A stretch of DNA of 64,000 nt from Candidatus Micrarchaeia archaeon (GCA_041663445.1 JBAYMR010000003.1:21123-85122), one strand, 5' to 3'; counted from the first letter of the stretch, positions 42,866 through 63,914 are shown. A program made the numbers and translations. Notes: a model not told the origin generated them from the sequence alone.

Positions 42866-45718
42866 TTGGAAAAGATAAGCGACGGGATTTGGGAAATGCC
42901 GCGCGAGGGCGCCATGAGGGTGGCTGCGCGCGTGTTTGCTACCGACAAGATGTTCGCCACCATGGGCAAGGACAGGACATTCGGGCAGCTTCGAAACGTC
43001 GCATCATTGCCCGGCATCGTGGGCAAGGCATGCCTCATGCCGGACGGGCACGAGGGCTACGGCTTCCCCATCGGCGGCGTGGCGGCATTCGACCCGGAGC
43101 AGGGCGGTGTGGTGTCGCCGGGCGGAGTCGGCTATGACATCAACTGCCTCGAGGCAAAATCAAAAATCCTCACCGAATTCGGCTTTTCATTGCCCATCGA
43201 GAAATTTGCAACTCAGTTTGAAAGCTTCGAGCGCTCAGGCGGCTATCTTGTGAGCATGTATAGCTCTGCCTTGCAGGTGCGCACGCTTGCAGGCAGCCTG
43301 CTTTCCTCTGCAAAGCCCGTCGCATTCATGTCGAAGAAAGCAGACAAGCGCATGCTTGAGGTAAAGACGCTCTGCGGGAAGCGGCTAGTGTGCTCAGAAG
43401 ACCACCCAGTTCTTACAAGAAGTGGCATGGTGAAAGCGGGCGAACTTGCTTCTGGCAAGGAAATTGCAGTCTCGCTTTTCGAGGGCGTTGAGTTTGAGCA
43501 GCCCGCTGCCTTTGCAGGCAAGGTGGAAGAGCTTGCCATCTGGGCCAAGCTCCTTGGCTACATGATGGGGGACGGTACGTTTTACACTTCTGGCGGGAAG
43601 ATGCGCACGGTTGCCTATGGAAAGCGCGAGGACTTGGAGGCGATGCAGAAGGACGTCTCAAGGCTGGGCTTCCATTCACACATCGTTGAAAGGCAAAGAA
43701 ACCACATCATTGAAACACAGTATGGCAGGAAGGAATTTTCCTCCTCAAACTGCGAGCTTCACATATACTCGCAGGAATTCTGCGAAAAGATTTCCGGGCT
43801 TGGCATGCCGATGGGCAAGAAAGCTTCGCAGGGCTATCGCGTGCCGCAGTGGCTTAACGAGTCGCCAAAATGGGTGAAAAGGCTTTTCCTCGCAGGCCTG
43901 TTCGGCGCAGAGCTCACCTCTCCAAAAACGCACTCGCGCACTGGCTTTAACGCGCCAATATTCGCGCAGAACAAGAACGAGGCGAATCTTGAGTCCGGCA
44001 GGATGTTCATGATTGACATCATGCGCCTGCTGGAGGAATTCGGAGTGAAAACCACCAAGATAGCCCAGAGGGCCGAACATAAAAACCTCGAGGGAAAGAC
44101 CTGCCGGCTCAGGCTTGAGATATCTGCCGAGGAAGAGAACCTTTTCCGCCTTTTCACCCTCGTGGGCATTGAATATTCAGTGCACAAGGCCAAGCTTTCC
44201 GAAATCGCCTCGCTTTACATCAAAAGGAAGCAGAAGTTGTCAGGAAAGCGTGCAGCCATTGCTGCTCGCGTGCGCGAGCTTAAGCAGAAAGGCGTAAGGC
44301 TCTCCGAGGCTCAGCAGCTTCTTTGCAGCGAAATTGCAAATGCGCGCTTCATAGAGCGTGCCTATTACGAAGGAAGAGTGCCAAGAATATCGCAGGGCTT
44401 TGAGCCATTCGAAAAGTTTGTCGGGAGGATGACGGCTGAAATCTCCTCAAACGGCGTGCTGTTTGACGAAATCGCCTCGATAACAGAAGTGCCCTACACT
44501 GGCGACGTCTATGATTTCACGGTGGAAGGCTCGCACAACTTTGTGGCGGATGGCATAATTGTTTCCAATTGCGGCGTAAGGCTCATCTCCACCCCGCTTA
44601 CTTCAGCCGAGGTGCGCGCGAAAATGCGCCAGCTCGTGGACCTTCTTTTCAAGAACGTCCCGTCGGGAGTCGGCTCCAAGGGCAAGCTGCGCGTGACGGA
44701 ACGCGAGCTTGACGAGGCCCTCACGCGCGGCATTGACTGGGCAATAGACTCGGGGTACGGCACGCGGCAGGACAAGGAAAGGACGGAGGAAGGCGGCAGG
44801 ATGGAGGGCGCAGACCCGTCAGCCGTCACTGAAAAGGCGAAAAAGAGGGGCTTGCCCCAGTTCGGGACGGTGGGCGCGGGCAACCATTTCGTCGAGATAC
44901 AGGATGTCGGGGAAATAATGCTCCCTGACGTAGCCGAAAAGTTCGGCGTGAAAAAAGGCAACGCCGTTGTCATGCTCCACTGCGGCTCGCGCGGGTTCGG
45001 GCACCAGGTGTGCGACGATTCCCTGCGCGACATGCTTGCGGCATCAAGGAAATACGGGATAGCGCTTCCCGACCCGGAGCTTTGCTGCGCGCCCATAAAT
45101 TCCCCCGAGGCGGAGAAATACCTCAAGGGGATGCGCTGCGCGGTGAATTACGCATTCTGCAACCGCCACATCATGATGCACTGGGTGAGGGAAACATTCG
45201 ACGAGGTGTTCGGCAAGGGCACGTCCGACCAGATGCCGCTTGTCTACGACGTGTGCCACAACATAGCAAAATTCGAGGAGCACACGGTGGACGGGCAGAG
45301 GAAGAAGGTGTGCGTTCACCGCAAAGGCGCCACACGCGCATTCGCCGCGGGCAGGATGGAAGTGCCCGCGATTTACCGCGACATCGGCCAGCCGGTGATA
45401 ATCCCGGGCAGCATGGGCACATCCTCCTATCTGCTTGTGGGCAAGCAGGGGGCGATGGACAACACGTTCGGCTCCTCATGCCACGGCGCAGGGCGTGCAA
45501 TGAGCCGCTCGCGCGCAATCCACACGTGGAAGGGCAATGCCATCCAGGGCGAGCTTGCGGGCAGGGGCATAATGGTCAAGTCCACCGAGTCGGAGCTTCT
45601 TGCCGAGGAGGCGCCGGGCGCCTACAAGGACGTTGACGAGGTCGTGCTTTCGGTCCAGGCTGCCGGCATCTCGGACATCGTCGCGAAGCTGCTGCCGATG
45701 GGCGTTGTGAAGGGTTAA
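42866..45718 (+). CDS. rtcB: RNA-splicing ligase RtcB interrupted by an intein
   Basis: PDGHEGYGFPIGG, GGVGYDIN|C, GNHFVE, HCGSRG, HRKGAT, HGAGR and EEAPGAYK. Confidence 0.96.
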   Translation: MEKISDGIWEMPREGAMRVAARVFATDKMFATMGKDRTFGQLRNVASLPGIVGKACLMPDGHEGYGFPIGGVAAFDPEQGGVVSPGGVGYDINCLEAKSKILTEFGFSLPIEKFATQFESFERSGGYLVSMYSSALQVRTLAGSLLSSAKPVAFMSKKADKRMLEVKTLCGKRLVCSEDHPVLTRSGMVKAGELASGKEIAVSLFEGVEFEQPAAFAGKVEELAIWAKLLGYMMGDGTFYTSGGKMRTVAYGKREDLEAMQKDVSRLGFHSHIVERQRNHIIETQYGRKEFSSSNCELHIYSQEFCEKISGLGMPMGKKASQGYRVPQWLNESPKWVKRLFLAGLFGAELTSPKTHSRTGFNAPIFAQNKNEANLESGRMFMIDIMRLLEEFGVKTTKIAQRAEHKNLEGKTCRLRLEISAEEENLFRLFTLVGIEYSVHKAKLSEIASLYIKRKQKLSGKRAAIAARVRELKQKGVRLSEAQQLLCSEIANARFIERAYYEGRVPRISQGFEPFEKFVGRMTAEISSNGVLFDEIASITEVPYTGDVYDFTVEGSHNFVADGIIVSNCGVRLISTPLTSAEVRAKMRQLVDLLFKNVPSGVGSKGKLRVTERELDEALTRGIDWAIDSGYGTRQDKERTEEGGRMEGADPSAVTEKAKKRGLPQFGTVGAGNHFVEIQDVGEIMLPDVAEKFGVKKGNAVVMLHCGSRGFGHQVCDDSLRDMLAASRKYGIALPDPELCCAPINSPEAEKYLKGMRCAVNYAFCNRHIMMHWVRETFDEVFGKGTSDQMPLVYDVCHNIAKFEEHTVDGQRKKVCVHRKGATRAFAAGRMEVPAIYRDIGQPVIIPGSMGTSSYLLVGKQGAMDNTFGSSCHGAGRAMSRSRAIHTWKGNAIQGELAGRGIMVKSTESELLAEEAPGAYKDVDEVVLSVQAAGISDIVAKLLPMGVVKG
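43145..44569 (+). mobile_element. Intein (475 aa) with LAGLIDADG homing endonuclease in rtcB
   Basis: Begins CLEAKSKI, block B SEDHP, LLGYMMGDG and FLAGLFGAE motifs, block F VYDFTV, ends IIVSN before the extein Cys. Confidence 0.93.
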
Positions 45719-50049: not shown

Positions 50050-52302
50050 TCACTTCGGGCAGTCGCTGTCGCATGCCGAGACTGCCGCGCGGTAGCGGCT
50101 CATCACCTGCGCGCCGTAGCTGTTCTTGGGCGAAAGCGAGCGCAGGTAGGCGATATAGTTCTGGTAACACTGCGTGTTCTGGCTGCCGTCACTTCCTGCG
50201 CAGCACTCGCCATTGGCATCGCGCTGCTTCACAAATTCGTTAAGCGTGGCTGGCTTGAGGCCGAAATAGCGGTTGGAGGCAAGATAATACTCAGCCCAGC
50301 CTTTTTCCTCCGGCTTCATGCCGCCTGTGCACTTTGAAAGCTGCGCCCAGTTGCTGTTCACCCAATTCTCGGTTGAACCGGAACCTCCGCGCAGGACGTC
50401 CGCGAACTTGTTCACGCCGCAGCACGCGCTCTGGCTGGCGTCAAACGGGTTGTAGTTTTCCCCGCCGCAGTTGGCAACTGGCGCAGGGACGCCGCCGCTC
50501 ACCTGCCCGTATGGATTGTCTATCGTGTATGCCTTGCCCGGGTATTCTATGCACTGCGCGAGCCCGTACGCGCACGGCTTCTGCTTCTTGCCGTTCTGCG
50601 GGTTTATGCCTGTGCATTTGTCTTTCTGGCACTTGGGGTCGTCCGCCATGCCTGCAAGCTCGCATATCTGCGCCATCGTGTACTTCTCCGGGTTGCATGC
50701 CGAATAATCATCATCCACGCACGTTGAGACTGCATACGGGTCAAACCCGCTTTCCTGCTCGAACTCCGCGCGCATGTATGTCGTGCTTATGTCCGCATCG
50801 TCCGCGCGCTCGTCTATTATTGGATAAGGCTCGCAATGGTTCCCGTCAAATCCGCCGGCAGTGCCGCTGTAATAAACGTATGGCATGGATGTTTCTGCAG
50901 GGCAGGCCTCCCCGCAGCCGAGCTTGGCTATTTTTGCCTCCGGCACCACCTCATCGCTGGAAAAGCCCTGCCCGCTGTTTATCATGGTTGCGGCATGGAG
51001 GCTTGGCTGGTCGTTCGTCATCACTTCGCACGATGAGCCCTGGCCGTTCCTGGAGAATATGAGTGGATTACGGTATTCGCTGTTCGCCCCCACTTCCTGG
51101 CACATGTCGGCCCACGCATTCATCTGGGGGTGCTTCTGCGACCCATTGGCGCTCAGCATCCCGAAGCTGCAGCCCTGCACGCCGTTGCACGGAAGCGAGC
51201 CGCTGCCATCCACGAACTCGTAAAAGCCCATGCCAAGCACTCCCGAGCTTGCAAGCCCGCCCGTGCGCGTGAGCAATTCCTGGTAAAAGCCGCTTACCAT
51301 AGTGCCGTCCCACTGGCAGGAGCCGTCGCTATTGTTGCCCTCGCTTGCGCCAGCGTAAAGCCATATCGTGGGCTTGTTGTAGTTTTTGAGTATGTAGCGC
51401 GAGAAGTTCAGGTTCTCGTAAATTATCCTGTCGGCATCGCAGTGGGGGTAGTCGTTTGCGCGGAAGCCGAAGCCTGCTGCATCTATGCTGTCAAGCATCG
51501 TGGTGTCTATCCCGTCCGGCGGCACGCCAATCACCTTGTAAAGCGCATTGTAGTCGTTTGGCTTCACTGCCAGCACGGTCATGCATTTTGTGCAGAAATG
51601 GCGGATGTTGTAAAGCTGCTGCTTCACATTGCTTATTGCATTGTCGTCCGAGCTGTTCAGCCATACTTCTGTTGTGACAAACACGGGCCCGATGTCCGCA
51701 GCCTGGAATGCGCTCGCAATTTCCTGGGTTCTTGAAGGGTCAATTGCCTTGCCCTCGGTATAATATATGTAAAGCGGCAGCGTGCTCCGCTGGAGCCAGC
51801 AGGCAGCGCGGGAGACCTGCGGCACGCGCGGCGGTGAATTTTTTGTGCCCTTCATCCACTTGGTGGCAAGCTGCAGCGTGTAGTTGCAGTAAAGGTTGGC
51901 GTGTCCGGTGGAGACGAAAGACTGCCCGGCTCCCAGCCCGAACACGCGCATCTGCGTGCTGTTGTCGCTTTCCACTATTTCCTCGTAATCCGTTTCATTG
52001 CACTTGCTGATGCTGCAGTTCCCGCCCTGGAGGTTGCTGTCATAGTAGCCGACCAGCCAGCCGAGCCCCAGGAAGCCATACGATGTCTTGTTGCTGCATG
52101 CCATGCAGTAGCATGGCTTGTTGCCAGGAATCCCCTGGCAGATAAGCTCGCTGTCGTTGAGGTATTTTGGCACGGTCATGTCCCCTCCGCTCACCGTCTC
52201 GATTGGGTTCCCATTCTGGTCCTGCAGCACGCAGCCTGGCACTGTGAGCAGAAGCACGGCAAAAAGCGCCAACAGCGCCGGAGGTTTCCATTTAATAGAC
52301 AT
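50050..52302 (-). CDS. Cys-rich lipoprotein with a glycoside-hydrolase-like barrel and a C-terminal lytic transglycosylase (SLT/lysozyme-like) domain
   Basis: Lipobox LLLTVPG|C; MRAEFEQESGFDPYAVS, AYGLAQ and NPFDASQSACCG motifs. The start overlaps the stop of the upstream giant gene. Confidence 0.7.
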   Translation of the reverse strand: MSIKWKPPALLALFAVLLLTVPGCVLQDQNGNPIETVSGGDMTVPKYLNDSELICQGIPGNKPCYCMACSNKTSYGFLGLGWLVGYYDSNLQGGNCSISKCNETDYEEIVESDNSTQMRVFGLGAGQSFVSTGHANLYCNYTLQLATKWMKGTKNSPPRVPQVSRAACWLQRSTLPLYIYYTEGKAIDPSRTQEIASAFQAADIGPVFVTTEVWLNSSDDNAISNVKQQLYNIRHFCTKCMTVLAVKPNDYNALYKVIGVPPDGIDTTMLDSIDAAGFGFRANDYPHCDADRIIYENLNFSRYILKNYNKPTIWLYAGASEGNNSDGSCQWDGTMVSGFYQELLTRTGGLASSGVLGMGFYEFVDGSGSLPCNGVQGCSFGMLSANGSQKHPQMNAWADMCQEVGANSEYRNPLIFSRNGQGSSCEVMTNDQPSLHAATMINSGQGFSSDEVVPEAKIAKLGCGEACPAETSMPYVYYSGTAGGFDGNHCEPYPIIDERADDADISTTYMRAEFEQESGFDPYAVSTCVDDDYSACNPEKYTMAQICELAGMADDPKCQKDKCTGINPQNGKKQKPCAYGLAQCIEYPGKAYTIDNPYGQVSGGVPAPVANCGGENYNPFDASQSACCGVNKFADVLRGGSGSTENWVNSNWAQLSKCTGGMKPEEKGWAEYYLASNRYFGLKPATLNEFVKQRDANGECCAGSDGSQNTQCYQNYIAYLRSLSPKNSYGAQVMSRYRAAVSACDSDCPK

Positions 52303-55300
52303 CATAATCACTGCCATAATTTCCTGTGATGAGCGCCAGTTCCATGTACTCTTCCCTGGTGTTATCGGATATTCTCCTGCTGCCAGGGCTGCTGATGTAG
52401 TGTGCCCTCTTCATCTTCCTTATCACCCACCTGGCCGGGGCGAACTGGCTCAGGTAATCGCTTGTTCTTTCTCCCATCTGCACCAGGTTCTGTGCTTTAA
52501 ACCTGCTCACCCAGCGTGACTGGTAAAGGTCCCGCGGATATTCGTATTCTTCCGGCTTCTGCCTATGTTCCTTGGGCGCGTGATTAATCAGCCGGTTTAC
52601 TTTCCTTGTAAGCAAAGGCTCTTCAAACGTAGATGACAGGCTGGACATCGCTGGGTTAAGATAAGCAAGATTCTTATAAGCTCCCCTGATAATCGGCACC
52701 CACACTGGCGACATGAACGCAAGCGTATAGTTGTTGATTGACGAATAGTTTACCTCTCTGCTCTGCATCTTCATCAGGTGCATCATCACCGGCACGTCGG
52801 TTTTGTAGTTCTCTGCGACAGAGTCCATCCTGGTCTGGAAACGGTCCGTGAAGTATATTTCCTTTGTATCCTGGTCATATCTCGCCTCCCAGTAGCTCTT
52901 CAGCGTGCCAAGGTGGCTCTTCTCATCTGCATTGTCCACAGTGCGCGCAACCTGGGGGAACGAGTGCCATTCGCCGCTGCCAATGGGTGCGGATTGCAGC
53001 ATTCCCGGGATGGTAGGGGTGAATACGTTGGTGTGGAACATGATATACATGTCCAGGAACCTGTTCCTCGAGCCGTCCTCCGCAATGTCCCTTCCCGAAA
53101 GCACATCCCTGATATATCTGCCTCTCTTATCATTAAAGTTTGCCGCGTTGTCCAATGTTTTGAACAGCGCGTCCGTGTAAGTTTTCTCCTTCGCAATATC
53201 CATCTCTATCGCTGCTTCGCTCAGCCTGCGGTTTGCCTCTGCCAAACCTATTTTCTCGCCATTCACATCCACGTCTAAGCCGCCGTTTTTTTCAATGAAC
53301 TTGTCAAACTCGCGCACCTGGTCAATGTACCTCTGCTGCAAGGACAACTGATATGGGGTGTCCCAGTACTGGTGGCTTTCCATGCCCATCTTGTCCAGCT
53401 GGTTTCTCACCCAGCTTCGGCCCTCCTCTCCCCTGTCATAGCCACCTGTCGCCTGGTGGGCGGCAATCATGTGCCCAACGCCTGTGAATGTCACGGTGTC
53501 CTGCAGCCTGGCCTTGAAAAAGTCGGTGTATGTCTTTGCCTGGAACAGGGCAATGAACGGCGCTTTCATGTATGATGTTGGACCCCTATGTTCATGGTCT
53601 GGCGCGTACATCATGTCGCTTTTCACCGGGGCGGGGTAGCCTGTGGTGTAGCGTGCCATGAAGCTGATTTTGTCGTTCCACCACTTGTGCACGGCGTATG
53701 CAATGTTAAGCTGGAGGTGCATGTGCTGTTCCCAAAGTGAGTTGGTCGCCCAGAAGCGCGCCCGCTCGTAGACATTCTGCCCTGTGTGATAGCCAACGTA
53801 CCACGCCCAGTCCATGCCAGGCGCGCCTGCGCCTATTGCGGTGCGCGGGTCACGCATGACGCTTGATTCGGTTATCTCGTAAAATACATCCTTCTGCCCC
53901 TGCACCTGATGGCTGTCCAAAAGCCTGCTTACAATCCCCATGTTCCACATTGTCCTTGCCGGGTTATACGTCGGGCCGCTGCCGTGGCTTCCGTTCCAGG
54001 TGATAAGCATCCTGTTCAAGTCGCCATAGTCGTGCTTTGCCTCCCTGTATTCCCTCCTCATCTCATTTTTCTTGTCCTGTATTTCGCTGCGCAGCGCATC
54101 GTACTTCGAATCCGCAATTTCCCCCCTTGCATGCAGCTTGTCCAGCGCACGAAGCTCGAGGCGCGCATTGTAATAGTTGTTCTCAGCCTCGCCAATGTCT
54201 TTCACCACTGTCGAGGCAATCCGCCCGCGCCACTCATGCCACCATGCCTGCTTGCCTTCCCAATACGTAACATCCTTCCCTTTCGCAAGATTTTCCATTT
54301 CATTCGTCAGCCTGTTCCGGTCCGAGGCATCCAGCTGCGTCTTGAAATCATCCGATTTTATCTTTTTTGCCGCATACATCTCGTCAATCCTGTCGAGCGC
54401 CGCGTTGCCAGTTTTCCACCTTTTGTTCCCGTCCATCATTTCTTCGCTTATGGCGCCCCCAAACCTGTCCAATGCCTGGCGGAGCTGGTACTGTGCCGAA
54501 TACCATTCCTGCATCTTGTCCAGCCTATCGGCAAATGCACCATATGATGACTCTGCCGAGCGCATGGCATATCCGTAATACTTTGACCGTATCCATTCCC
54601 TGGTCCTATCAAGCCCGGTGTATTCGCCAAAGGCATCGCTCTTTTTTCTGCCATACTCGTTGAAGTCGCGGGTCGAGACCACCCGCAACCCTGCATCTTC
54701 TGGCTTGCTGCCTTCATTGATTTTTACCATGCTCTCGATTATTTCCTTGCGGAACGCCACCCTTTTCTCAGCACCCATTGCCATCGCTTGCGCTTCTTTT
54801 TCCTTGAACGGGTCGGTGTATATCCACCTGATTTTTTCATTCCCATCCTTATCCTTATAGGTATCCTTCTTAAGTATCACAAATCCGATTTCCCTGCTGG
54901 TATAAAACGAACCCATGGTGCGCGCAACAAGCGCGGCATAGTTGGGCACATCCCCTTTGCGCACAATGCCGTCCCTTTGCTCGATTGGCAGGAGCTTTCC
55001 ATCCTTGCCCTTCTGCCACGTCATGTACTTCTGGTCAAACTCCACCATGGGCACGGACTTCCTGTCCACGCTCAGCAAAAGCCCCACGCCGTTTTTCATG
55101 TCGCCCCAGCGGTAGCCTCGATCGATGATGGCATCATATGCGTCAACATCGAACACGGCAAGCCCTTTCTCCCCCGTCTTCAGTATGCCCCTCTTTTTCA
55201 TGTCATCTGCGAATTTCTTGTCGTAGAAAATGCTTTCCCCGTGCACCAGGCCCTGGTAGAACTTTTCATATTTTTTCAGGTCGTCGTTATAGGCCCTGCG

Positions 55301-58300
55301 TGTGGCGTCCAGCAGCCCGAGCACGTTGTCGCCCCTGCTGCTGCCTTCCCATTTATGCGATACCGTGAAGCCGAAAATTGCTTCCCACCCCCTATTTTCG
55401 AAAATCAGCCCTTCCACATCATGGCTCTTGTACTCTGCATAGCCCATTTCGCGCCTATACGCCGGCTTTTCGAATCTGAGGTAGTCCATGTTGGTTTTGA
55501 ACGTGCCTGAGGTTCTCACATCGTATGCTGCCGCATTCCCGCTTGCCATGTACCTGGCAGCGTCTTTGCCTCCGTGCAGTATCTCGGTGGCTGCATAGTT
55601 CCTTGCCACCCAATCTGTGTTGTATTTCTTCATATCTGTAAGGATGGACTTCAGCATCGTTTCCAGCGGGTCCTTGCTCATGTTGGCGGGCGTTGTCGCA
55701 TCCTTCCTGCCTGCCATTATCTCCCTTACCTTTTGCTGGAAGAGGTATTCCTCCCTCGCACTGTCTGGATTCCCTATCACCTTGCCGAAGAACTGGTCCA
55801 GCGCGTCAATGTTGGTGAATACTGGGATGGGCTTCCCTTTCTCGTCTAGCTTGAGGTTGCCGTTGCCGTCTTTCTTGTAAAGGAACTCGTCTTCGATGCC
55901 ATGCTTTTTCATCGCATATATCATGAATAGCTCAAGCGGGTTCTTTCCGAACCAGCAGCCTTCGCGCACCATCTGCCCAAAGTCAATATCAGGCAGCCTT
56001 CCATCCTTGCCCCTATTCTCCAGCTGCCTGTCCAGTTTTTTTATGAGCGCATCCATTATGCCCGTCGTTATACTCTCGTACTTCGCATAAATTTCCTGCG
56101 CATTCTTCCCGTCAAGGAGATATTTTTTCATCTCCTTTCTCCTGTCATCATACGCTTTGAACGTTACGTTTTCCGCTTCTTTCAGCGACTTGAGGGAATC
56201 GAGCGTCTTGCGCGCCGCGTTAAGCTCCTTTTGGGAAAGCGTGCCACCCTTGGCCCCTGATGCCAGCTTGTCCAGCGCCGCCCGGTCCGCATCCGAAAGC
56301 GCCACCCCGGCTTTCTCCATCTGCTGTTTCATCTTTTCCACTGCGCCTGCAACCCCCTTGCCGCTGGTGGCTGCGCTGCGGAGGTCAATCAGGCTCGCGT
56401 AAAGCTCGCGGTGCTTGAACAGTTCGTTTACTAAGTCATCCCCGTACTTTTCCCTAAGCCTCTTTTCCTTGCCTACTTTGTCCCTGCTGTCCATCTCTAT
56501 TTCTACGTCTTTTTTCTCTATTATCTTGTAAATGTTTTTCGCATCTTCCTCATTTGAAAGGTAGATAAGCATTTTTTCCTTCAGTCCTTTCTCCACTTCG
56601 CCGAACGTCTTGATGGCAGTGCCGAGTGTTGTCAGGTATTCCATCGTTTCCTTGTCGCTCTTGGACGCTTTTTTGGCCAGTTCCAAAAGCTCTTCCAGCT
56701 TTTTCTGCTGGTTCATGCCCCTGTCATTTATTATCCTGGCCACTTCCTGCTCATAGCCTATTGACTCGCGAAGCTGCGTTGCAAATGCCTTTGCAACATC
56801 CTTGTCGGTTTTGGAAAGGCCCTTGAGGCCGTCAATGGTTTTCACAATCTGCTTCAGCTGCCTGTCCAGGTCTGCCGTTTCAAGGTTCTTCCCGTTCTTG
56901 TCCATCCCATTCCCGCTGTAAAGTTTATCCAGCGCAGCGGCAAGCTCGTGGCTCTCCTTGCTATTGACCTTTTCCCTCAGTTGTTTCTTTATTTTTTCAA
57001 AAATATATTCCATGCCCTTCCGCCTGGCAAGATCATCCAGCTCCCTCTTATCCTGCTCTTTCTTTGGCAGTATTTTCCTAAGCTCGGCTGCAAGCTTGCG
57101 TGAAGCGTTGCTGCGCGTTGGTATGCTGGAAAGCACGTTGAAGCCAAGCGCCGCGAACATCCTGTTGAGCTGGTCGGTTTCGTGCTGCGCCTTGCTATTT
57201 ACCGTATTGTAAAGTGTCACCAGCCTTTTCGTGAGCAGGTCATGCTTCGTCTCGAAAGCCGCCCAGCTTTTGCCTGTGATTTTTTCATAATATTTGCCGA
57301 ACTTCGTCTTCTTGCCGTCCTTGACGTGGAGGCTCTCGAACATCTTGTAAATGCGTTTGGGCTTGCCATTCTTGTCGTGTCCTGCCCTATATGCCATCTG
57401 GCCCAGCATCTCGTTTCTCACTCCCTTGATTGCCGCGCGCGAGCTTCGGAACTGCGCACCAACATCCAGCACCTTCCCGGGTATTGTCAGCACATGCCCC
57501 ACGAACGGGACGTAGCCAAGTATGTTGACGATTTTGGAAGATTCAAAGGCATTCACGGCTTTCGTTGTCTTGTCAAGACCCTTGCTCACCTTTTTCGAAA
57601 GAATGTTCGTTCCGCCCCTGCTCCTTGCCGCCTCCATCATTTTCATTGCCGCGTGCGTATCCAGATAAATCGTCAAAAGTCCGCTTGACAGCTTGAGGGA
57701 GCGCTCATAATCATGCATCTTCCACTTGAAGCTAATATTGCTCTCATCCTTCCTCTTCACCGGCGCGTATTTCCCCATCAGGTTGTTCCAGTCCCTCAGC
57801 AGCATCGCCCTGTCTGCATCGGAAAGCGGCTCCTTGCCTCCCATCATCTTTTCCGCTTTGTCATACAGGTTCTGCATCTCCTTCTTTGCCTTTTCCGCGT
57901 CCATGCCGTTTTTCCTGGCAAAGCGCGCAATTTCCTTGACTGAATCGCGGCGTGATTTCACCCCGATCATCATGTACCTGCGCTTGACTTGGCGCAGCAT
58001 CTGCGGGGACTGCCCCATCCTGACCCTGAAGGTCTTGGCCTTCGGCAGCTTGGGCGTGGTGATATCAAAAAGCGAGAGCGGGTCCCTGCCCGCATAGTAC
58101 ATTGCAGCTATGAGCAATCCTGCGATGAGCATGGCCGGGAAGCAGAACGGGAGCCTGTTCCGGTCGCTTATCGCCTTGTATATCGCTGGCGCAAAAGCCG
58201 AAAGCCCTGCATTGCTGACTGGGCACACCACTGCAGTCTGGGAAGCTTCCGGGAATTTTGCCGAGCCGCGGACCATCGAGTCCGCCCTTATCGTCACATA

Positions 58301-58774
58301 TCCGCAGCTCTTGTAATCATCAATGGGGTGCACCGTGCCGTTTGCGTCCTTGTAGTGCGTGATTTTGCACGAGGCCATTCCCTGCTCGCTCGTGTTGATT
58401 GGGTCGCACGCCTTTTCGCCTGCCCCATCGACTATTTCCATTCCTTCGAACGTGAAGTGCAATGCCGAGCAGTTGAGCGGATCCACTTCGGCCGTGAAAT
58501 TGTCAATCGAGTAATTGCCCATCTGGTGCAAGTCGTCGAGGTTTCCTGCCTCGGTCACTTTTTTTGTCACTTCCGCTATCGCGGTTTCATTGTACTGGCT
58601 GAAGTAAGTGATATTGAGGAAGGTCACCCTCACGGTGACATTGGTCTCGTTCACCGATGTCGAGATGAACGTGCTGAAGGCCGCGTCGGAGTAGGGCGCC
58701 TGGGCAAGCGCAAGATGCGCCTGCAGCGCCAGCAGTAAGAGAAAAAGCCCTGATGCTGGTACGGCTGACCTCAT
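52292..58774 (-). CDS. Giant (2160 aa) membrane-anchored hypothetical protein
   Basis: Signal peptide, Cys-containing ~180-aa domain, TM helix FPAMLIAGLLIAAMYY, then ~1900 aa of charged, helical sequence. Confidence 0.85.
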   Translation of the reverse strand: MRSAVPASGLFLLLLALQAHLALAQAPYSDAAFSTFISTSVNETNVTVRVTFLNITYFSQYNETAIAEVTKKVTEAGNLDDLHQMGNYSIDNFTAEVDPLNCSALHFTFEGMEIVDGAGEKACDPINTSEQGMASCKITHYKDANGTVHPIDDYKSCGYVTIRADSMVRGSAKFPEASQTAVVCPVSNAGLSAFAPAIYKAISDRNRLPFCFPAMLIAGLLIAAMYYAGRDPLSLFDITTPKLPKAKTFRVRMGQSPQMLRQVKRRYMMIGVKSRRDSVKEIARFARKNGMDAEKAKKEMQNLYDKAEKMMGGKEPLSDADRAMLLRDWNNLMGKYAPVKRKDESNISFKWKMHDYERSLKLSSGLLTIYLDTHAAMKMMEAARSRGGTNILSKKVSKGLDKTTKAVNAFESSKIVNILGYVPFVGHVLTIPGKVLDVGAQFRSSRAAIKGVRNEMLGQMAYRAGHDKNGKPKRIYKMFESLHVKDGKKTKFGKYYEKITGKSWAAFETKHDLLTKRLVTLYNTVNSKAQHETDQLNRMFAALGFNVLSSIPTRSNASRKLAAELRKILPKKEQDKRELDDLARRKGMEYIFEKIKKQLREKVNSKESHELAAALDKLYSGNGMDKNGKNLETADLDRQLKQIVKTIDGLKGLSKTDKDVAKAFATQLRESIGYEQEVARIINDRGMNQQKKLEELLELAKKASKSDKETMEYLTTLGTAIKTFGEVEKGLKEKMLIYLSNEEDAKNIYKIIEKKDVEIEMDSRDKVGKEKRLREKYGDDLVNELFKHRELYASLIDLRSAATSGKGVAGAVEKMKQQMEKAGVALSDADRAALDKLASGAKGGTLSQKELNAARKTLDSLKSLKEAENVTFKAYDDRRKEMKKYLLDGKNAQEIYAKYESITTGIMDALIKKLDRQLENRGKDGRLPDIDFGQMVREGCWFGKNPLELFMIYAMKKHGIEDEFLYKKDGNGNLKLDEKGKPIPVFTNIDALDQFFGKVIGNPDSAREEYLFQQKVREIMAGRKDATTPANMSKDPLETMLKSILTDMKKYNTDWVARNYAATEILHGGKDAARYMASGNAAAYDVRTSGTFKTNMDYLRFEKPAYRREMGYAEYKSHDVEGLIFENRGWEAIFGFTVSHKWEGSSRGDNVLGLLDATRRAYNDDLKKYEKFYQGLVHGESIFYDKKFADDMKKRGILKTGEKGLAVFDVDAYDAIIDRGYRWGDMKNGVGLLLSVDRKSVPMVEFDQKYMTWQKGKDGKLLPIEQRDGIVRKGDVPNYAALVARTMGSFYTSREIGFVILKKDTYKDKDGNEKIRWIYTDPFKEKEAQAMAMGAEKRVAFRKEIIESMVKINEGSKPEDAGLRVVSTRDFNEYGRKKSDAFGEYTGLDRTREWIRSKYYGYAMRSAESSYGAFADRLDKMQEWYSAQYQLRQALDRFGGAISEEMMDGNKRWKTGNAALDRIDEMYAAKKIKSDDFKTQLDASDRNRLTNEMENLAKGKDVTYWEGKQAWWHEWRGRIASTVVKDIGEAENNYYNARLELRALDKLHARGEIADSKYDALRSEIQDKKNEMRREYREAKHDYGDLNRMLITWNGSHGSGPTYNPARTMWNMGIVSRLLDSHQVQGQKDVFYEITESSVMRDPRTAIGAGAPGMDWAWYVGYHTGQNVYERARFWATNSLWEQHMHLQLNIAYAVHKWWNDKISFMARYTTGYPAPVKSDMMYAPDHEHRGPTSYMKAPFIALFQAKTYTDFFKARLQDTVTFTGVGHMIAAHQATGGYDRGEEGRSWVRNQLDKMGMESHQYWDTPYQLSLQQRYIDQVREFDKFIEKNGGLDVDVNGEKIGLAEANRRLSEAAIEMDIAKEKTYTDALFKTLDNAANFNDKRGRYIRDVLSGRDIAEDGSRNRFLDMYIMFHTNVFTPTIPGMLQSAPIGSGEWHSFPQVARTVDNADEKSHLGTLKSYWEARYDQDTKEIYFTDRFQTRMDSVAENYKTDVPVMMHLMKMQSREVNYSSINNYTLAFMSPVWVPIIRGAYKNLAYLNPAMSSLSSTFEEPLLTRKVNRLINHAPKEHRQKPEEYEYPRDLYQSRWVSRFKAQNLVQMGERTSDYLSQFAPARWVIRKMKRAHYISSPGSRRISDNTREEYMELALITGNYGSDYDVY

Positions 58775-58854
58775 GGTGTCTCCCAGATTGTTTTCGCCCT
58801 CTCATTCTTATAAATATGCTTCCCGAAATAGGCGAAAGGGCAGGTGCTGGCGCG

Positions 58855-60288
58855 ATGTTTGGATACCTTCTGACAACCCCCGCGGAACTGCTTGCGAACA
58901 GCAACGTATTCATGGCTTTCGCATTTGCAGTCTCCATCATCTCGCTCTCTTACATGGCGGGCGAGTTCATGTCCATGGCAAGCCTGAAAGGGTTTGCCAA
59001 GGCGGAGCTTTACGAGCTGGGCGTGAGTGCAGTCATACTCGTTCTCCTTCTTGTCATGATCACTCCCGACGGGCCGTTCGACATGGTTTCGCGCGGATTC
59101 ATGCCATCCGTCAGCCCCACCGGCTCCGGGCCCGAGCTTTGCGAGCAATGGAAGGAGATACACAAGCCCGTGGTGCTTGACCCGCTGACCGGCACATGGT
59201 TCGCGCAGAATGGCAACATTGCATTCGGCTCCGCCAACTATTTCCTGGGCTGCAAGCCCAAAATCAGCAACATCATCCACGCTTTTTCAGGCTGGACCGA
59301 CCCGTCATCGGGCGTGCCCGCAGATATTTTTCCCGGCGTGATTTCGTCCCGCCTGATGAAAGGCTACACCTCGCTCATGCTTACCCAGATGTTCACGGGT
59401 TTCCTGTCCGGGCTTTCCACCAACATCCCGCTCATCTTCATGGGAATTCCCCTTGAAATAGGGTTCATGCCGTTCGTCGGCATCGGGCCAGTCAATCAGG
59501 CGCACACAGGGATTGTCGACCTGCTGGGCACGGTGTTTGCTGCTTTCACTGCGCAGAACATGCTGCTGACTTTCATCGAGGAAGCCGCGATTCCCGTTTT
59601 CCTCCCGTTCGGCATGATACTGCGCGCCTTCCCTTTCAGCAGGAAAACCGGCTCCACCATAATCGCCGTGGTGGTGGCCGCGTATTTCGTCTATCCCCTG
59701 TCCATCCTGTTAAACCAGCAGATATGGCTCATGGTTGTCTCCCCGCCATGCCCCGCCGGCTTCCAATGCCTCGCAGTGGGTGCGACATGCCAAAACGACG
59801 AGGATTGCGCCTCGTTCGACTGCCGCGCGGAAAGGTGCGTGGTGCCGCTCACGGACTTCACGGAATACCATTCAATCTATTCGCTCTGCAAAGGCACATA
59901 CACCCCGTCCAATTCGGAGAGGACGCTGTCCATCATTGGGATGGAACAGGACAAGCGCATGATGGAGATGTATTTCTCGGGCACGCCTACCAGCGTGGAA
60001 CCCACAAAAACCGAGGGGCGGCTGCACGACGGGTTTTTATCTCTTATTGAAAGGCACGGCATATCCGCATTGAAGTTCGGAACATCGTTCCTTTTTGCGC
60101 CAGTCGGGGCTGCCGCACAGACCGCGTTCAGCGAAATCGAGGTGTTGGTGATGGATGCAGGGCAATACGCCCTGCTCGCACTAATATTCACGGTGTTAAC
60201 AGTGGTCATATCCCTTACCATGCTCAAGGACATCGCCATATTGATAGGGGGCGAGCCGCGCGTGTTCGGGCTTTCAAAACTGGTGTAA
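58855..60288 (+). CDS. Polytopic membrane protein, CedA/VirB6-like paralog 1
   Basis: AKAELYELGVSAVIL; LPFGMILRAFPFSRKTGSTIIA...YFVYP; Cys-rich loop; C-terminal IGGEPRVFGLSKLV. Confidence 0.65.
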   Translation: MFGYLLTTPAELLANSNVFMAFAFAVSIISLSYMAGEFMSMASLKGFAKAELYELGVSAVILVLLLVMITPDGPFDMVSRGFMPSVSPTGSGPELCEQWKEIHKPVVLDPLTGTWFAQNGNIAFGSANYFLGCKPKISNIIHAFSGWTDPSSGVPADIFPGVISSRLMKGYTSLMLTQMFTGFLSGLSTNIPLIFMGIPLEIGFMPFVGIGPVNQAHTGIVDLLGTVFAAFTAQNMLLTFIEEAAIPVFLPFGMILRAFPFSRKTGSTIIAVVVAAYFVYPLSILLNQQIWLMVVSPPCPAGFQCLAVGATCQNDEDCASFDCRAERCVVPLTDFTEYHSIYSLCKGTYTPSNSERTLSIIGMEQDKRMMEMYFSGTPTSVEPTKTEGRLHDGFLSLIERHGISALKFGTSFLFAPVGAAAQTAFSEIEVLVMDAGQYALLALIFTVLTVVISLTMLKDIAILIGGEPRVFGLSKLV

Positions 60289-60305
60289 CGCAGTGCGCAG
60301 CATGA

Positions 60306-61274
60306 TTGAAAAATGAAAATGGTGTCTTGATGTACCTGTTGTCAGCAGCATACTCGTCCGATTCCATGCTTAGCCTGGTGGGCACCATGATCGGGACCGG
60401 CGCCGCCACCATGGTGTTCATGCTTGCCCTTTTCTACATGGCAGCCCAGTTTTTCAAGAAGCCCGAGTATGAGGCGTTTGTCTCGATAGAAATCTACCAG
60501 CTCGCAGTTTCGCTCATGCTGTTCACCACGATATTCGGCGCCGCCTATTTTGCAAACGAGTTGTCTGCCTCGTTTTCATCCGCCATTTCCGGCACCAGCG
60601 GGGACGCATTCGACGTGGGGAGCAACTACCTCAACTACGTGGCAAACGAGGTTGCATTGCAGGCCATAAAGAAGCTCCAGGGGCTGATGCTCCTCTCGCA
60701 GTGGATGGGCTCCATCACCATGCGCTTTGGCGCCGGGGTGTGGGGCGTGGTCGTGCCCGCATTCCCCTCTTTCATAGTGATAGAGAAGGTGATGGAGTTC
60801 CTGCTCATGCTGGTTTCACCGTTCACTGCCAGCCTGATTGTGCAGCAGGTGGGGTTGCAGATCATCAAGGCGACCATGCTGCCATTTGTCCTTCCGATGG
60901 GCGTGGTGCTGCGCATCTTCCCGCCCACCCGCGACGCAGGCTCGTTCATCATCTCGACCGCGTTGGCATTCCAGGTAATATTTCCCTTCAGTTACGTGAT
61001 GCATGCCCAGATAGTGAAAGGCATACTCATCCCGAACGCATATGCCAATGAAAAGAACGTCGCCGACTACATGACGAACACGCTCGGAGCCGGCAGGCTG
61101 ACTGCATTTGTGAGCGAGAACGGGCTTTTTGACATAACCAGCATGCTATTCAGCCCCATCCTGTCGCTTTCCTTCCTGCTCCTGCAGGCGGTTTTCCTTC
61201 CCGCGCTCAGCATGGTGCTCACAGTGGCATTTATCAAGAGCTTCAATAAATTCATAAGCCAGAAATTCAGCTGA
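60306..61274 (+). CDS. Polytopic membrane protein, CedA/VirB6-like paralog 2
   Basis: VSIEIYQLAVSLML; LPMGVVLRIFPPTRDAGSFIIS...VIFP. Start uncertain. Confidence 0.65.
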   Translation: MKNENGVLMYLLSAAYSSDSMLSLVGTMIGTGAATMVFMLALFYMAAQFFKKPEYEAFVSIEIYQLAVSLMLFTTIFGAAYFANELSASFSSAISGTSGDAFDVGSNYLNYVANEVALQAIKKLQGLMLLSQWMGSITMRFGAGVWGVVVPAFPSFIVIEKVMEFLLMLVSPFTASLIVQQVGLQIIKATMLPFVLPMGVVLRIFPPTRDAGSFIISTALAFQVIFPFSYVMHAQIVKGILIPNAYANEKNVADYMTNTLGAGRLTAFVSENGLFDITSMLFSPILSLSFLLLQAVFLPALSMVLTVAFIKSFNKFISQKFS

Positions 61275-61280
61275 TATTGT

Positions 61281-62570
61281 ATGGCAAGCAAAAACCTATT
61301 GATTGTGGCGGGCATCCTGCTTTTGCTTTTCGCCAGCTTCGGCTGCACCAGCCCGCCTTCGGGCGCTGCCACGCCCAAAACCAGCTCAATGGGCTGGAAC
61401 CTGCTCGTAGGCGTGGCAGTGATGATAGTGGTGCTGCTGCTTGCGCTTGGCTACATGGTCGCGGCTTTCTTGGGTGATGACCGGCTCAAGGCATGGGTGA
61501 GCCGCGAGCTTGGGCAGGTCTTCTTCTCAGTGGTGATAATCGTCGTTGTGGTCGCGCTTGCAGGCTCTCTTGACCAGTGGCTGAATCTGCTCTCCCTTGC
61601 AGGTGGCTCCACTTGGCAGAATTACGTGAGCACCGGGGTGTGCTGCCCGGCAGGAGGCGCATGCAGTTTCCCAACAAGCAGCCAGCCGCGCGGAAGGGCG
61701 TGCCACATTGAAATCGCCTCGGACTACCTACAGGTCCTCTATGAAAGCACAAGGCAAAGCGCGAGCGCCGACCTGAGCAACTACGGGATGTTCGCCTTTC
61801 TATCCCATCTATCGGTAAGTAAGTCTCTTGTGCTCAAATACCTGGCTATAAACTCCACCATGCCATTCGCAGGCCTGGAGCTTGCTGCCGAATTCTTCTC
61901 GAACCTGTTCGACCTTTCCATAAAGACCATGATGCTTTTGCGTGCGCAGCAGATTTTCCTGGACTTCATGTGGTATCCGCTGTTTCCTGTGATGCTTTCC
62001 ATGGGCTTGGTGCTGCGCATATTCTATTTCACGCGCAAGCTAGGGGGACTGATGATTGCGCTGGGCCTTTCCTTCTACGTGGTTTTCCCCATGTTCTACG
62101 TTCTTGCCAACGGCATCATGTGGGGCTTCATGGACAATCCCGCCTCGCTTTCGGTTGGCATGACATATAATTCCGACCAGACAACCGGCACGCCCCTGCC
62201 ACTGTATGGCCAGAACCAGCTTGCGCCGCAGCAGCGCGCCAAGAACGTGTTTAACTCTGGCACATCGGTGGATATTGACATCTGCAACGCAAGCACGGTG
62301 CAGGAGTTCAATGCTGCTGCCAGCGAGTTTGACAGGTTCGGCAGTTCCTGGAACACGTTTGAAGGCGGCAAATGGTATCAGCAGTTCTGGACGTTCATAT
62401 CTGTCCGTGCATTTTCCTTAGACGGGCCCATCGCCAACCTCGCATTCCTCATGGTTTTCACCATGATTATCCCGTTCCTTTCGCTCATGACGTCTCTTGC
62501 CGCATTCAAGGTGCTCTCGCCCATGATAGGCGGAGATGTGGAAATCTCACTGCTCTCGAGGCTGATATGA
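61281..62570 (+). CDS. Polytopic membrane protein with lipobox-like N-terminus, CedA/VirB6-like paralog 3
   Basis: ASFG|C; VSRELGQVFFSVVII; MGLVLRIFYFTRKLGGLMIA...YVVFP; C-terminal IGGDVEISLLSRLI. Confidence 0.65.
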   Translation: MASKNLLIVAGILLLLFASFGCTSPPSGAATPKTSSMGWNLLVGVAVMIVVLLLALGYMVAAFLGDDRLKAWVSRELGQVFFSVVIIVVVVALAGSLDQWLNLLSLAGGSTWQNYVSTGVCCPAGGACSFPTSSQPRGRACHIEIASDYLQVLYESTRQSASADLSNYGMFAFLSHLSVSKSLVLKYLAINSTMPFAGLELAAEFFSNLFDLSIKTMMLLRAQQIFLDFMWYPLFPVMLSMGLVLRIFYFTRKLGGLMIALGLSFYVVFPMFYVLANGIMWGFMDNPASLSVGMTYNSDQTTGTPLPLYGQNQLAPQQRAKNVFNSGTSVDIDICNASTVQEFNAAASEFDRFGSSWNTFEGGKWYQQFWTFISVRAFSLDGPIANLAFLMVFTMIIPFLSLMTSLAAFKVLSPMIGGDVEISLLSRLI

Positions 62571-63914
62571 TTGGCAAAAATTAGCAGAATCTCAATCGTG
62601 CTTGCCGCATTGCTCACGCTCCTGCTGCTTTCAGGCAGGCTTTACCCAGGCAACCTGATAGACGGGCTTTTCAGCCCGGCAAGCTCGCTCACGACGTGTG
62701 CGCCCAACCCGGGATTTGCAAGCGTGCTTGAATGGGCTGGGCTTTCCCTCGTTGCAATCATGATCGGAGTGGTATGGGCAACGATAGGGCAGGTGCTGGG
62801 CGGCACGTTTGGCGGGCAAAAATACAACGAGTTCATCAAGGGCATGCTATGGGGTGCAGTGGAAACCGCGGCTCTCTTGGGACTATTCCTCTCGCTCTTT
62901 TCCGTACTTTGGCCATTCGGCATGGAAAATCTGGACAAGGCGCGCGCATATGCTGTGCTCACCAAAAATACGGTCCAATTCGATTTTGCCATATTGCTTT
63001 CAACCAACGTGTTCATAGGTTTTCTCGCCAATTTCAGTCCCCCTCTCAAGATGCCTGGCAAGATATTCGTCACATTCGGGGTCCAGTTCGCCCCCATGCT
63101 CAAGCCTCTAATGGACATACTCGGCACTGCCATGCAGCTCATCACCACTGCGGTGGTGATGTGGAACGCACAGGAATTCCTGCTCTGCTTCATCAAGTCC
63201 AACATGCTTACCATACTCCTTCCCGCCGGCTTTTTCCTGCGCGGCTTTGGCGTCAAGGCAGGCGGCAACGCGCTTCTCGGCATTGCGATTTCATTGTTTT
63301 TTGTCTATCCTTACATGGTAAACATGACTGGCGAGGTGGTAGCAAATCACCTCGTGCTCGAGCGCGCGTATGAAGACTCGCCCCATCTATGGGGCGACTG
63401 CCACAACCGGCCAATCTGTTGCCTGATTGTCGGGAGTGCCCGCCCGAGCAGTATGAACGAGCCATTCATCAAAAACGGCGTAAACTGGGCGACGGATTTG
63501 GACTATCGCATCTCGCCGGAAAAGGTCAATCAGGGTATGTTTGACATGAAGTTCGACAACCAGGTGGCGGGTGGGGGCAATGCAAACAGCTGGTGTATGT
63601 ACAATACGGCCGTGAGCAATGCTTACAAGGCATTCCTCAGCCCCATCATGGCCACTGGCTTTGTCGGCGGTGCTGGCGCAGCAGGAACGCTTGTAGTGCT
63701 GAAATACCTCAACCTCGGTCTGCTTGCAGTAAGTGCAGTAATCCCAATCTCCATGTTCACCTTCTATATAATGAGCGACATCATGTACTTTGTCTTCGTG
63801 GTCACCATGATAGTGCCGCTTTTCATAATCTTCGTCACGCTCACATTGGCAAAGGAAATCGCCAAGGTGCTTGGCACCGAGATAGACCTAAGCTCGCTTG
63901 AGAAGCTGATATGA
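62571..63914 (+). CDS. Polytopic membrane protein, CedA/VirB6-like paralog 4
   Basis: LPAGFFLRGFGVKAGGNALLGIA...FVYP; Cys-containing loop; C-terminal LGTEIDLSSLEKLI. Confidence 0.62.
   Translation: MAKISRISIVLAALLTLLLLSGRLYPGNLIDGLFSPASSLTTCAPNPGFASVLEWAGLSLVAIMIGVVWATIGQVLGGTFGGQKYNEFIKGMLWGAVETAALLGLFLSLFSVLWPFGMENLDKARAYAVLTKNTVQFDFAILLSTNVFIGFLANFSPPLKMPGKIFVTFGVQFAPMLKPLMDILGTAMQLITTAVVMWNAQEFLLCFIKSNMLTILLPAGFFLRGFGVKAGGNALLGIAISLFFVYPYMVNMTGEVVANHLVLERAYEDSPHLWGDCHNRPICCLIVGSARPSSMNEPFIKNGVNWATDLDYRISPEKVNQGMFDMKFDNQVAGGGNANSWCMYNTAVSNAYKAFLSPIMATGFVGGAGAAGTLVVLKYLNLGLLAVSAVIPISMFTFYIMSDIMYFVFVVTMIVPLFIIFVTLTLAKEIAKVLGTEIDLSSLEKLI

Follow-up and report, generated by a model that had tools for sequence, protein, structure and literature searches.

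Giant single-anchor membrane proteins of Micrarchaeota share a near-invariant juxtamembrane motif and may belong to an envelope machine

Hydrolases of the SLT/M23 type are attached to the type IV secretion systems (T4SSs) of Gram-positive bacteria, as illustrated by PrgK and CwlT. The T4SS-like machineries used here for comparison are Prg/Pcf of pCF10, with the VirB6-like PrgH and with PrgK (LytM, SLT and CHAP), ConG/CwlT of ICEBs1 and the archaeal Ced and Ted systems (PMC9905601, PMC11868833). The locus described here belongs to a Candidatus Micrarchaeia archaeon and lies in a stretch of 64,000 nucleotides (GCA_041663445.1, JBAYMR010000003.1:21123-85122), the whole of which is called the window below. 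It encodes a membrane protein of 2160 amino acids (aa), hereafter the giant, flanked by a gene for a large Cys-rich lipoprotein and by an array of six polytopic membrane paralogs (par1 to par6). Its parts list, with polytopic channel-like proteins and a putative membrane-attached wall hydrolase of the SLT/M23 type, is reminiscent of the T4SS-like machineries of Gram-positive bacteria and archaea. Unlike these, it has its channel-like protein as six fixed paralogs, and neither a VirB4/CedB-type ATPase nor a pilin nor a coupling protein was found in the window cluster, the ATPase being absent also from the continuation of the cluster. Furthermore, no component described for T4SS, Ced or Ted is known to resemble a bitopic giant with a cytoplasmic domain of 1900 aa.

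Other systems offer more limited likenesses. In PilN, a juxtamembrane INLLP peptide binds PilM. PilN of type IV pili and GspL/GspM of type II secretion resemble the giant in combining a single transmembrane (TM) helix with a short conserved cytoplasmic peptide, which by analogy may be read as a docking site. However, they share no sequence or fold similarity with the giant, which is archaeal, predicted to be glycosylated and paired with a lipoprotein, and their size split is the opposite of that predicted for the giant (1930 aa in the cytoplasm and only 180 aa outside). In the same way, nesprin/KASH-SUN (LINC) and EzrA are comparable at the level of concept only: a giant helical cytoplasmic protein is held on one TM helix, and its small far-side domain would pair there with a partner. 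There is no homology, no spectrin-like repeat and no fold match, and the non-repetitive, conserved C-terminal part of the giant (the head) has no counterpart in these proteins. The SPEARE proteins of Nanohaloarchaeota, which like Micrarchaeota are host-dependent DPANN archaea, are also very large, restricted to their lineage and presumed to act in host interaction. DPANN giants of this type are mostly extracellular and carry recognisable protease, adhesin or nuclease domains, whereas most of the micrarchaeotal giant is predicted to lie in the cytoplasm, and no domain can be recognised in it. Neither the cluster nor the giant was found described in the literature searched.

The reading favoured here, at about even confidence, is that the giant is a transmembrane scaffold or adaptor subunit of an undescribed, Micrarchaeota-specific envelope machine. 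It is based on the anatomy of the protein, on its invariant pairing with the lipoprotein and on the fact that the same trio (paralog array, Cys-rich exoprotein and motif-bearing giant) has been assembled twice. A first-pass annotation, made from the window alone, had proposed a tether or conduit, a TraG-like mating-pair stabiliser or a delivered effector for the adjacent membrane complex; of these, the tether, or more broadly a scaffold, fits the anatomy.

The protein is encoded by a single open reading frame (ORF) and, as this annotation had it, has one anchor: in a hydropathy scan, the TM helix is the only hydrophobic segment besides the signal peptide. The signal peptide, the Cys-containing domain and the TM helix followed by GRDPLSLFDITTP are all present, the latter string at aa 229-241 (window 58052-58090), directly past the helix. 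In all full-length family members taken together, the part before the TM helix contains 2.32 Cys and 2.60 N-x-S/T sequons per 100 aa, versus 0.10 and 0.36 after it; Cys are thus 23 times and sequons 7 times denser before the helix, and the residues that follow it are strongly basic. From the Cys and sequon densities on the two sides it follows that the bulk of the giant is cytoplasmic. The giant is therefore predicted to be a type I membrane protein (N-out, C-in), of which only a small domain would be exposed and about 1930 aa would be cytoplasmic. Its cleavable signal peptide is predicted to export a small beta-domain that would be glycosylated and disulfide-bonded. This ectodomain carries 9 sequons and 6 Cys; within the close family, no variation is seen in Cys 123, 136, 157 and 184 or in C211 at the outer end of the TM helix, and three of the Cys of the giant remain invariant across the wide alignment.

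A function as a delivered effector or toxin, or as a TraG-like stabiliser of mating pairs, now appears extremely unlikely for the giant. Nothing favours these proposals except the large size of the protein and its nearness to a putative transfer apparatus, and they are at odds with a cleavable signal peptide, a single TM helix, a predicted glycosylated ectodomain and an invariant anchor. They also fit poorly with conservation over the full length, vertical inheritance and a fixed chromosomal locus (22 loci). No similarity to TraG or VirB6 and no Pfam match was detected in any of 17 members (TraG_N and TrbL require five or more TM helices), nor was there any match to a toxin or defence family.

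Conservation was profiled on 17 full-length homologs and on a wider alignment (n=29, 21-48% identity). Nowhere is the family more conserved than in the juxtamembrane motif, the sole part common to distant giants and to those of a second type of cluster (type 2, see below), which carry variants of it. In the close family the signature reads Cys-x-Pro-TM-G(R/K)(D/N)P(L/F)S(L/F)FD(I/F)(T/S)xPR(L/M); the deep signature across the class is C-x-P-TM-G(R/K)(D/N)P(L/F)x(L/F)(F/L)D(I/L/F)(T/S)xPR(L/M). A search for this motif in other giant proteins, as the first-pass annotation had suggested, is productive: the TM helix and juxtamembrane region alone reveal giants in distant Micrarchaeota genomes, with E-values of 1e-8 to 1e-22 and always within ORFs of 1000-2200 aa. 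The matches in these distant genomes are confined to profile positions ~200-245, i.e., to the TM helix and the juxtamembrane peptide. AlphaFold, run separately on the N- and C-terminal halves with the 17-sequence alignment, gives the TM helix and invariant motif (aa 202-257) a predicted local distance difference test score (pLDDT) of only 26-44, against 70-91 for the flanking domains, a pattern that suits a peptide folding on a partner.

By contrast with the anchor motif, the motifs of the head are absent from four distant type-1 giants and three type-2 giants. The deep signature of the family is therefore the anchor motif, and the conserved head is, as far as its sequence distribution tells, a later addition at family level. 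Its core (aa 1590-2040) is specific to type-1 giants with a sequence-detectable C-terminal region, mainly those of the window's own GTDB family. The family can be defined by a signal peptide, a Cys-rich ectodomain, the C-x-P-TM-motif arrangement, a helical cytoplasmic part of at least 900 aa and a position beside a gene for a large Cys-rich lipoprotein. All these features were found together, which defines the juxtamembrane-motif giants of Micrarchaeota; by the criterion of sequence, this is a new protein family without detectable relative in any characterised family.

In Micrarchaeota (Anstonellales), conservation extends along the entire giant (21-48% identity), and 16 full-length homologs have 1913-2302 aa. 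A HMMER search with the C-terminal half gave 42 matches among 1.84 billion representative proteins, nearly all of them giants of 1850-2400 aa or their fragments. A scan of 185,579 species genomes gave 28 loci, all from Micrarchaeota/Anstonellaceae except two contigs under other labels, and the named relatives are likewise assigned to Candidatus Micrarchaeota, Micrarchaeia or Anstonellaceae, these two records aside. The full-length profile matches 119 of the 301 sampled genomes of the phylum, many of which carry two such genes, while the single C-terminal sequence matches 18 of the 301. In the single-sequence search with the C-terminal half, matches were strong within the same genus and weak, via the core, in other genera, and included one genome from another family of the order.

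Some loci deviate from this general picture. The two differently labelled records are a 3.4-kb contig named "Patescibacteria group bacterium" (L039), with a giant fragment at 51% identity, and a contig named "Woesearchaeota UBA10216" (L051), which encodes a full giant; both are probably mis-binned or mislabelled Micrarchaeota. In another genome (G229, L026:8797-14763), two neighbouring ORFs of 1026 and 950 aa, each matching the giant profile, take the place of the giant; this could reflect a real split, a frameshift or an assembly error. In a genome from another family of the order (G091, L011:6845-9676), about 2.8 kb separate paralog 1 from a shorter giant of 1542 aa.

The cytoplasmic part was initially described as about 1900 aa of charged helical tail. 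This description holds for aa ~260-1040 (35-50% Lys, Glu, Asp and Arg; helices with pLDDT 70-90), i.e., for about 40% of the cytoplasmic part, but not for aa 1040-2040, where conservation is good and aromatic residues and Gly abound. In this C-terminal half, conservation peaks in two almost invariant blocks, aa 1590-1760 and 1880-2040, in which E, R, T, Q, Y, H and D are kept. The core motifs of aa 1590-2040 are GSH, ESSxMRDPR, VGYxTGQxVYER, WE, HK, QRxxD, DGSRNRF and PxxPGM. Polar residues invariant in 29 sequences are D1225, S1289, R1432, E1636, R1641, T1664, Q1666, Y1669, E1670 and R1905, and H1696 is kept in at least 90% of the same alignment.

Such residues could belong to a novel cytoplasmic enzyme or energiser formed by aa 1040-2040, which would replace the missing VirB4-type ATPase or modify a substrate at the membrane, the helical part being a mere tether. 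The same reading draws on the lack of an ATPase gene in or beside the cluster, the HerA/VirB4-like ATPases of the genome (AAA_10 and DUF87 matches) being encoded only on other contigs (C1 and C2). It is nonetheless unlikely. As first noted, the giant has no Walker A motif (regular expression GxxxxGK[ST], loose forms included), and HExxH or another metal-binding motif is also absent; the C-terminal half has no family, PDB or fold match. Moreover, the head motifs are missing from distant type-1 and type-2 giants that keep the anchor motif, and the head therefore cannot be a universal motor. A P-loop NTPase of a known kind (VirB4, VirD4, FtsK/HerA or SMC heads) was rejected for want of a Walker A motif and of any P-loop match in Pfam or NCBIfam.

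Structure prediction followed by Foldseek, the approach initially advised, was successful in part. The model of the N-terminal half is usable (mean pLDDT 67), with the ectodomain at pLDDT 85-91 over aa 100-190 and aa 257-920 modelled as helical bundles at pLDDT 70-90, while the model of the C-terminal half is unusable (pLDDT 44.7). Foldseek found nothing significant for the N-terminal half in PDB (best E 0.38), nor in BFVD (best E 1.6e-3, TM-score at most 0.11), where the list of viral proteins is tape-measure noise of the sort expected for a long helical query. On the low-confidence model of the C-terminal half it returned noise (best E 0.33). Scans of the window giant against Pfam, NCBIfam, PHROG and PADLOC gave no match, Pfam scans of all 17 close family members gave nothing consistent, and sequence and profile searches of PDB returned only coiled-coil noise (aa 520-970). 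Thus, the protein matches no known unrelated family in any of these resources, an outcome that the first-pass annotation had left to be checked.

An N-terminal anchor followed by hundreds of residues of helical bundles, in a chromosomal core gene amid housekeeping genes, would also be expected of a membrane-anchored cytoskeletal scaffold, or one for cell shape or division, of the EzrA/nesprin kind and without any role in secretion or contact. Such a scaffold would hardly explain a conserved, predicted glycosylated ectodomain, the constant pairing with a secreted hydrolase-like lipoprotein or the duplicate systems per genome. Internal repeats were not found (hhalign of 150-aa chunks, all versus all, best probability 1.5%), and the fold search matched neither spectrin-like nor EzrA-like proteins. 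This alternative is thus very unlikely. Without tandem repeats or a significant fold match, repeat scaffolds of the spectrin or EzrA type and phage tape-measure proteins were rejected as identities of the giant. A bridge-like lipid-transfer protein (VPS13, AsmA, TamB), in which a long beta-groove comes after the N-terminal TM anchor, was also rejected, since the structure predicted past the TM helix is overwhelmingly helical and has no fold match, the model of the C-terminal half being of low confidence.

The most constant neighbour of the giant is the lipoprotein. The first-pass annotation had coupled the giant to an SLT gene, and a homologous lipoprotein gene does lie directly 3' of the giant in 22 of 22 type-1 loci, lineages with unlinked arrays included. 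The window lipoprotein is rich in Cys and sequons and contains a QESGFD...GLAQ...YNPFD string with Cys-rich inserts; it gave no family match itself in the library scans. Pfam SLT was matched by six of 20 members of the lipoprotein family, at best with an E-value of 2.9e-4, which falls short of the trusted level, and Peptidase_M23 by one (E 5.7e-15), so the SLT label, a prediction from sequence, has moderate support.

The genes of the window are archaeal (RtcB with an intein, L15e, RNase P Pop5 and p30, AdoMetDC). Gene order is identical in the window and in seven contigs that encode homologs at 28-48% identity. On one strand lie SecD, SecF and par6 through par1; on the other, diverging from par1, are the giant and then the lipoprotein of ~750 aa, and beyond this pair come AdoMetDC, RNase P, L15e and RtcB. 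The eight-gene block is also present in nine more distant genomes and in one further genome (L026). Overall, 18 of 22 loci have the six-paralog array and the giant next to each other in divergent orientation, with the order par1 to par6 fixed in those 18. In the other four the array is found elsewhere in the genome; indeed, all six tested genomes with an unlinked pair or a weak giant match, these four included, carry arrays. The link to the adjacent membrane complex that was proposed initially is therefore maintained, and type-2 clusters repeat it.

In these type-2 clusters (L019, L020, L023 and L025), genes for paralog-like proteins, for a Cys-rich protein of ~1300-1700 aa and for a giant with the motif follow one another in this order, all in the same direction. 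The genome of the window also has one (contig C9:2-18060), with six paralog-like genes (579, 343, 1401, 398, 445 and 465 aa) followed by a protein of 1689 aa with 99 Cys and 30 sequons, and by a giant-like protein that is cut by the contig end. The latter has a Cys-rich ectodomain of 665 aa and the motif variant CWPLMLILGLLLGANFAAGKNPFHSFDFSSPRMG / GKNPFHSFDFSSPRMG. Inherited synteny alone does not so readily account for two associations of the same three kinds of parts that differ in gene order.

Five of the six paralogs have a conserved cytoplasmic tail straight after their last TM helix, G-x-(D/E)-x(5-7)-L-x-(K/R)-(L/I)-(I/V) (window 59900-63914 and contig C3 85050-87115), for example GGEPRVFGLSKLV, GGDVEISLLSRLI, GTEIDLSSLEKLI and GDEIDVSNLTRLI. 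Each tail is near-invariant across genomes whose giants share just 28-48% identity. The idea that the TM helix and motif of the giant are a seventh copy of the last TM helix and tail of the paralogs (GGEPRIFGLSKLV and similar) was rejected as unsupported, the two being alike by eye only. A single-copy relative of the paralogs on contig C5 is without T4SS-like neighbours in its own genome. In array-bearing families without a detectable giant, a protein of ~800 aa recurs about 5 kb downstream of par6 (L056:4188-6608, L058:2859-5279, L060:4646-7006 and L062:4423-6795). This protein is anchored at its N-terminus and has another TM helix at ~aa 550, past which comes (R/K)xPxRDxxYIDVPxxPP, a loose echo of RDPLSLFDITTPRLP in the giant; it has no Pfam match.

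The intergenic region of 80 bp between the giant (start 58774) and paralog 1 contains the box CATATTTATAAGAATGAGAG, which is found in 8 of 8 homologous intergenic regions. As its near-palindromic TATA core lies ~35-40 nt from both start codons, the box may be a conserved archaeal TATA element, which suggests a bidirectional promoter shared by the giant and paralog 1. The longest ORF of paralog 1 would start at 58753 and overlap the start codon of the giant; the ATG at 58855 gives a protein of 477 aa, in line with homologs of 473-497 aa, and is the probable start.

Table 1. Positions of the giant, its regions and its neighbours in the window
Feature	Position	Strand	Basis or remark
Giant gene	52292-58774	-	One uninterrupted ORF, 2160 codons + TAA stop at 52292-52294
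Signal peptide, aa 1-24 (MRS, hydrophobic core, ALA before QA)	58703-58774	-	Hydropathy scan; AQxPYSDAAF kept after cleavage site
Ectodomain, aa 25-207, beta-rich	58154-58702	-	AlphaFold strands throughout, Cys/sequon enrichment, invariant columns
Single TM helix, aa 208-229, opened by invariant C211-F-P	58088-58153	-	Hydropathy; C211 invariant in 29 sequences
Juxtamembrane signature, aa 223-267, AAMYYAGRDPLSLFDITTPKLPK then basic residues	57974-58108	-	12 invariant residues in 29 sequences
Conserved cytoplasmic helical-bundle region, aa 257-560	57095-58006	-	Conservation 0.55-0.78; helices pLDDT 70-90; no fold match
Variable charged helical spacer, aa 561-1040	55655-57094	-	Conservation 0.30-0.49, many indels, Lys/Glu/Asp/Arg 28-53%; helical in model
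Conserved region, aa 1041-1589, mixed helix and strand	54008-55654	-	Invariant G1220, D1225, S1289, R1432; AlphaFold confidence low
Most conserved cytoplasmic core, aa 1590-2040	52655-54007	-	Alignment blocks; AlphaFold pLDDT ~25-40
Partner gene, 755-aa Cys-rich lipoprotein, lipobox VPGC	50050-52317	-	Start overlaps end of giant gene
Promoter box CATATTTATAAGAATGAGAG, TATA-like	58799-58818	.	In intergenic region between giant and paralog 1
First four of six polytopic membrane paralogs	58855-63914	+	Divergent from giant; paralogs 5 and 6 and SecF/SecD just past the window

If the giant is a scaffold or adaptor, its ectodomain would pair outside the cell with the Cys-rich SLT/M23-type lipoprotein, which is always encoded alongside and appears translationally coupled. 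The near-invariant peptide G(R/K)(D/N)PLSLFDITTPRLP, predicted to be unstructured alone, would serve for docking on the cytoplasmic side of the membrane and so fix the giant to a partner. This partner would most likely be a ring or platform made of the six channel-like paralogs, or a cytoplasmic domain bound to such a ring. The helical-bundle stalk (aa 260-560) and the charged spacer (aa 560-1040) would hold the ~1000-aa head (aa 1040-2040) off the membrane, where it may recruit or gate the cargo of the machine, or signal between the cytoplasm and the wall-cutting lipoprotein outside. We infer that the giant physically contacts both the lipoprotein and the paralogs. Given the DPANN lifestyle and the T4SS-like parts list, the machine would serve contact or exchange with another cell.

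Several observations weigh against such a machine. In 4 of the 22 loci, from class- or order-level genomes, the giant-lipoprotein pair has no adjoining array. Arrays occur in 16 of the 17 genomes in which the profile finds no giant, and no giant was found beside them, so that either arrays are not strictly dependent on the giant family or their partner has diverged beyond recognition. The dependence of the giant on the array cluster, assumed at first, hence holds only in part: the pair can lie apart from arrays, and arrays can exist in genomes without a detectable giant. Housekeeping genes share the synteny of the neighbourhood, and adjacency within Anstonellaceae may partly be inherited gene order. 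None of the four window paralogs has an NCBIfam match at E<=1, the CedA model included; this model (NF041796) matches only a type-2 paralog of contig C9, weakly (E 0.02). Comparison of the N-terminus of the giant with the paralogs by hhalign gave a probability of at most 1.9%, and a hidden Markov model of the conserved C-terminal tails of the paralogs misses the giant among the 7309 ORFs of the genome. Besides, the invariant polar residues of the head could mean catalysis rather than scaffolding, and the gene was found in DNA metagenomes only, with no RNA runs.

The first two of these points would also be expected if the giant and the lipoprotein formed a self-contained, array-independent module of two proteins, i.e., an enzyme cutting the wall or the host envelope that is held and controlled by a transmembrane partner whose large cytoplasmic domain would be regulatory. 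The pair is adjacent in all 22 loci, arrays adjoin it in only 18, and the entire neighbourhood (SecDF, AdoMetDC, RNase P, L15e) being syntenic, the nearness of the array would be inherited gene order. However, the type-2 clusters again unite paralogs, a giant Cys-rich protein and a motif giant in one co-directional operon, the six tested genomes in which the pair is unlinked or the giant match weak all keep arrays, and the box in the promoter region that separates the giant from paralog 1 is kept as well. This possibility is consequently considered rather unlikely, and the scaffold or adaptor of a larger envelope machine is retained as the preferred reading.

The giant, which is among the largest proteins of this 1.2-Mb genome, was noted from the start for its AT-richer DNA. 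The difference is modest: the GC content of the gene is 0.523, versus 0.57-0.62 in its housekeeping neighbours. Most of the deficit is at second codon positions (GC2 0.378) and comes from a protein rich in Lys, Glu, Asp and Asn, while GC at third positions is slightly lower (0.68 versus 0.72-0.80). A foreign origin was rejected because the difference is mainly in GC2 and the flanking synteny is conserved. Farther along the window, the RtcB gene (42866-45718, + strand) contains an intein with a LAGLIDADG homing-endonuclease domain, whereas homologous loci have an intein-less RtcB of ~475 aa.

Cryo-electron tomography of the Micrarchaeon ARM-1 showed nanotubes of the host docking on a 21-nm barrel of the symbiont envelope, to which no genes have been assigned (PMC11329633). 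It is tempting, though improbable at this stage, to propose that the giant, the SLT/M23-type lipoprotein and the six paralogs build an envelope barrel of the ARM-1 type. If this were true, the 1900-aa cytoplasmic part of the giant would be the inner cage or gate of a cytoplasm-to-cytoplasm conduit, and the system would represent a new class of archaeal cell-cell junction, with a core subunit that has no relative in any known secretion system. Until structure or interaction says otherwise, the system is most economically regarded as an unusual variant of T4SS-like envelope machinery.

The invariant membrane-proximal peptide provides a simple sequence tag for finding the family in metagenomes, and it is a well-defined site at which to aim interaction studies and mutagenesis. 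The giant is a concrete candidate where the attachment of DPANN archaea to their hosts, and the exchange of material between the two, are concerned. Because it is large, conserved over its full length across the order, always found with a hydrolase-like lipoprotein and usually with six channel-like proteins, it may be the core of a host-contact apparatus, a proposal that can be tested.

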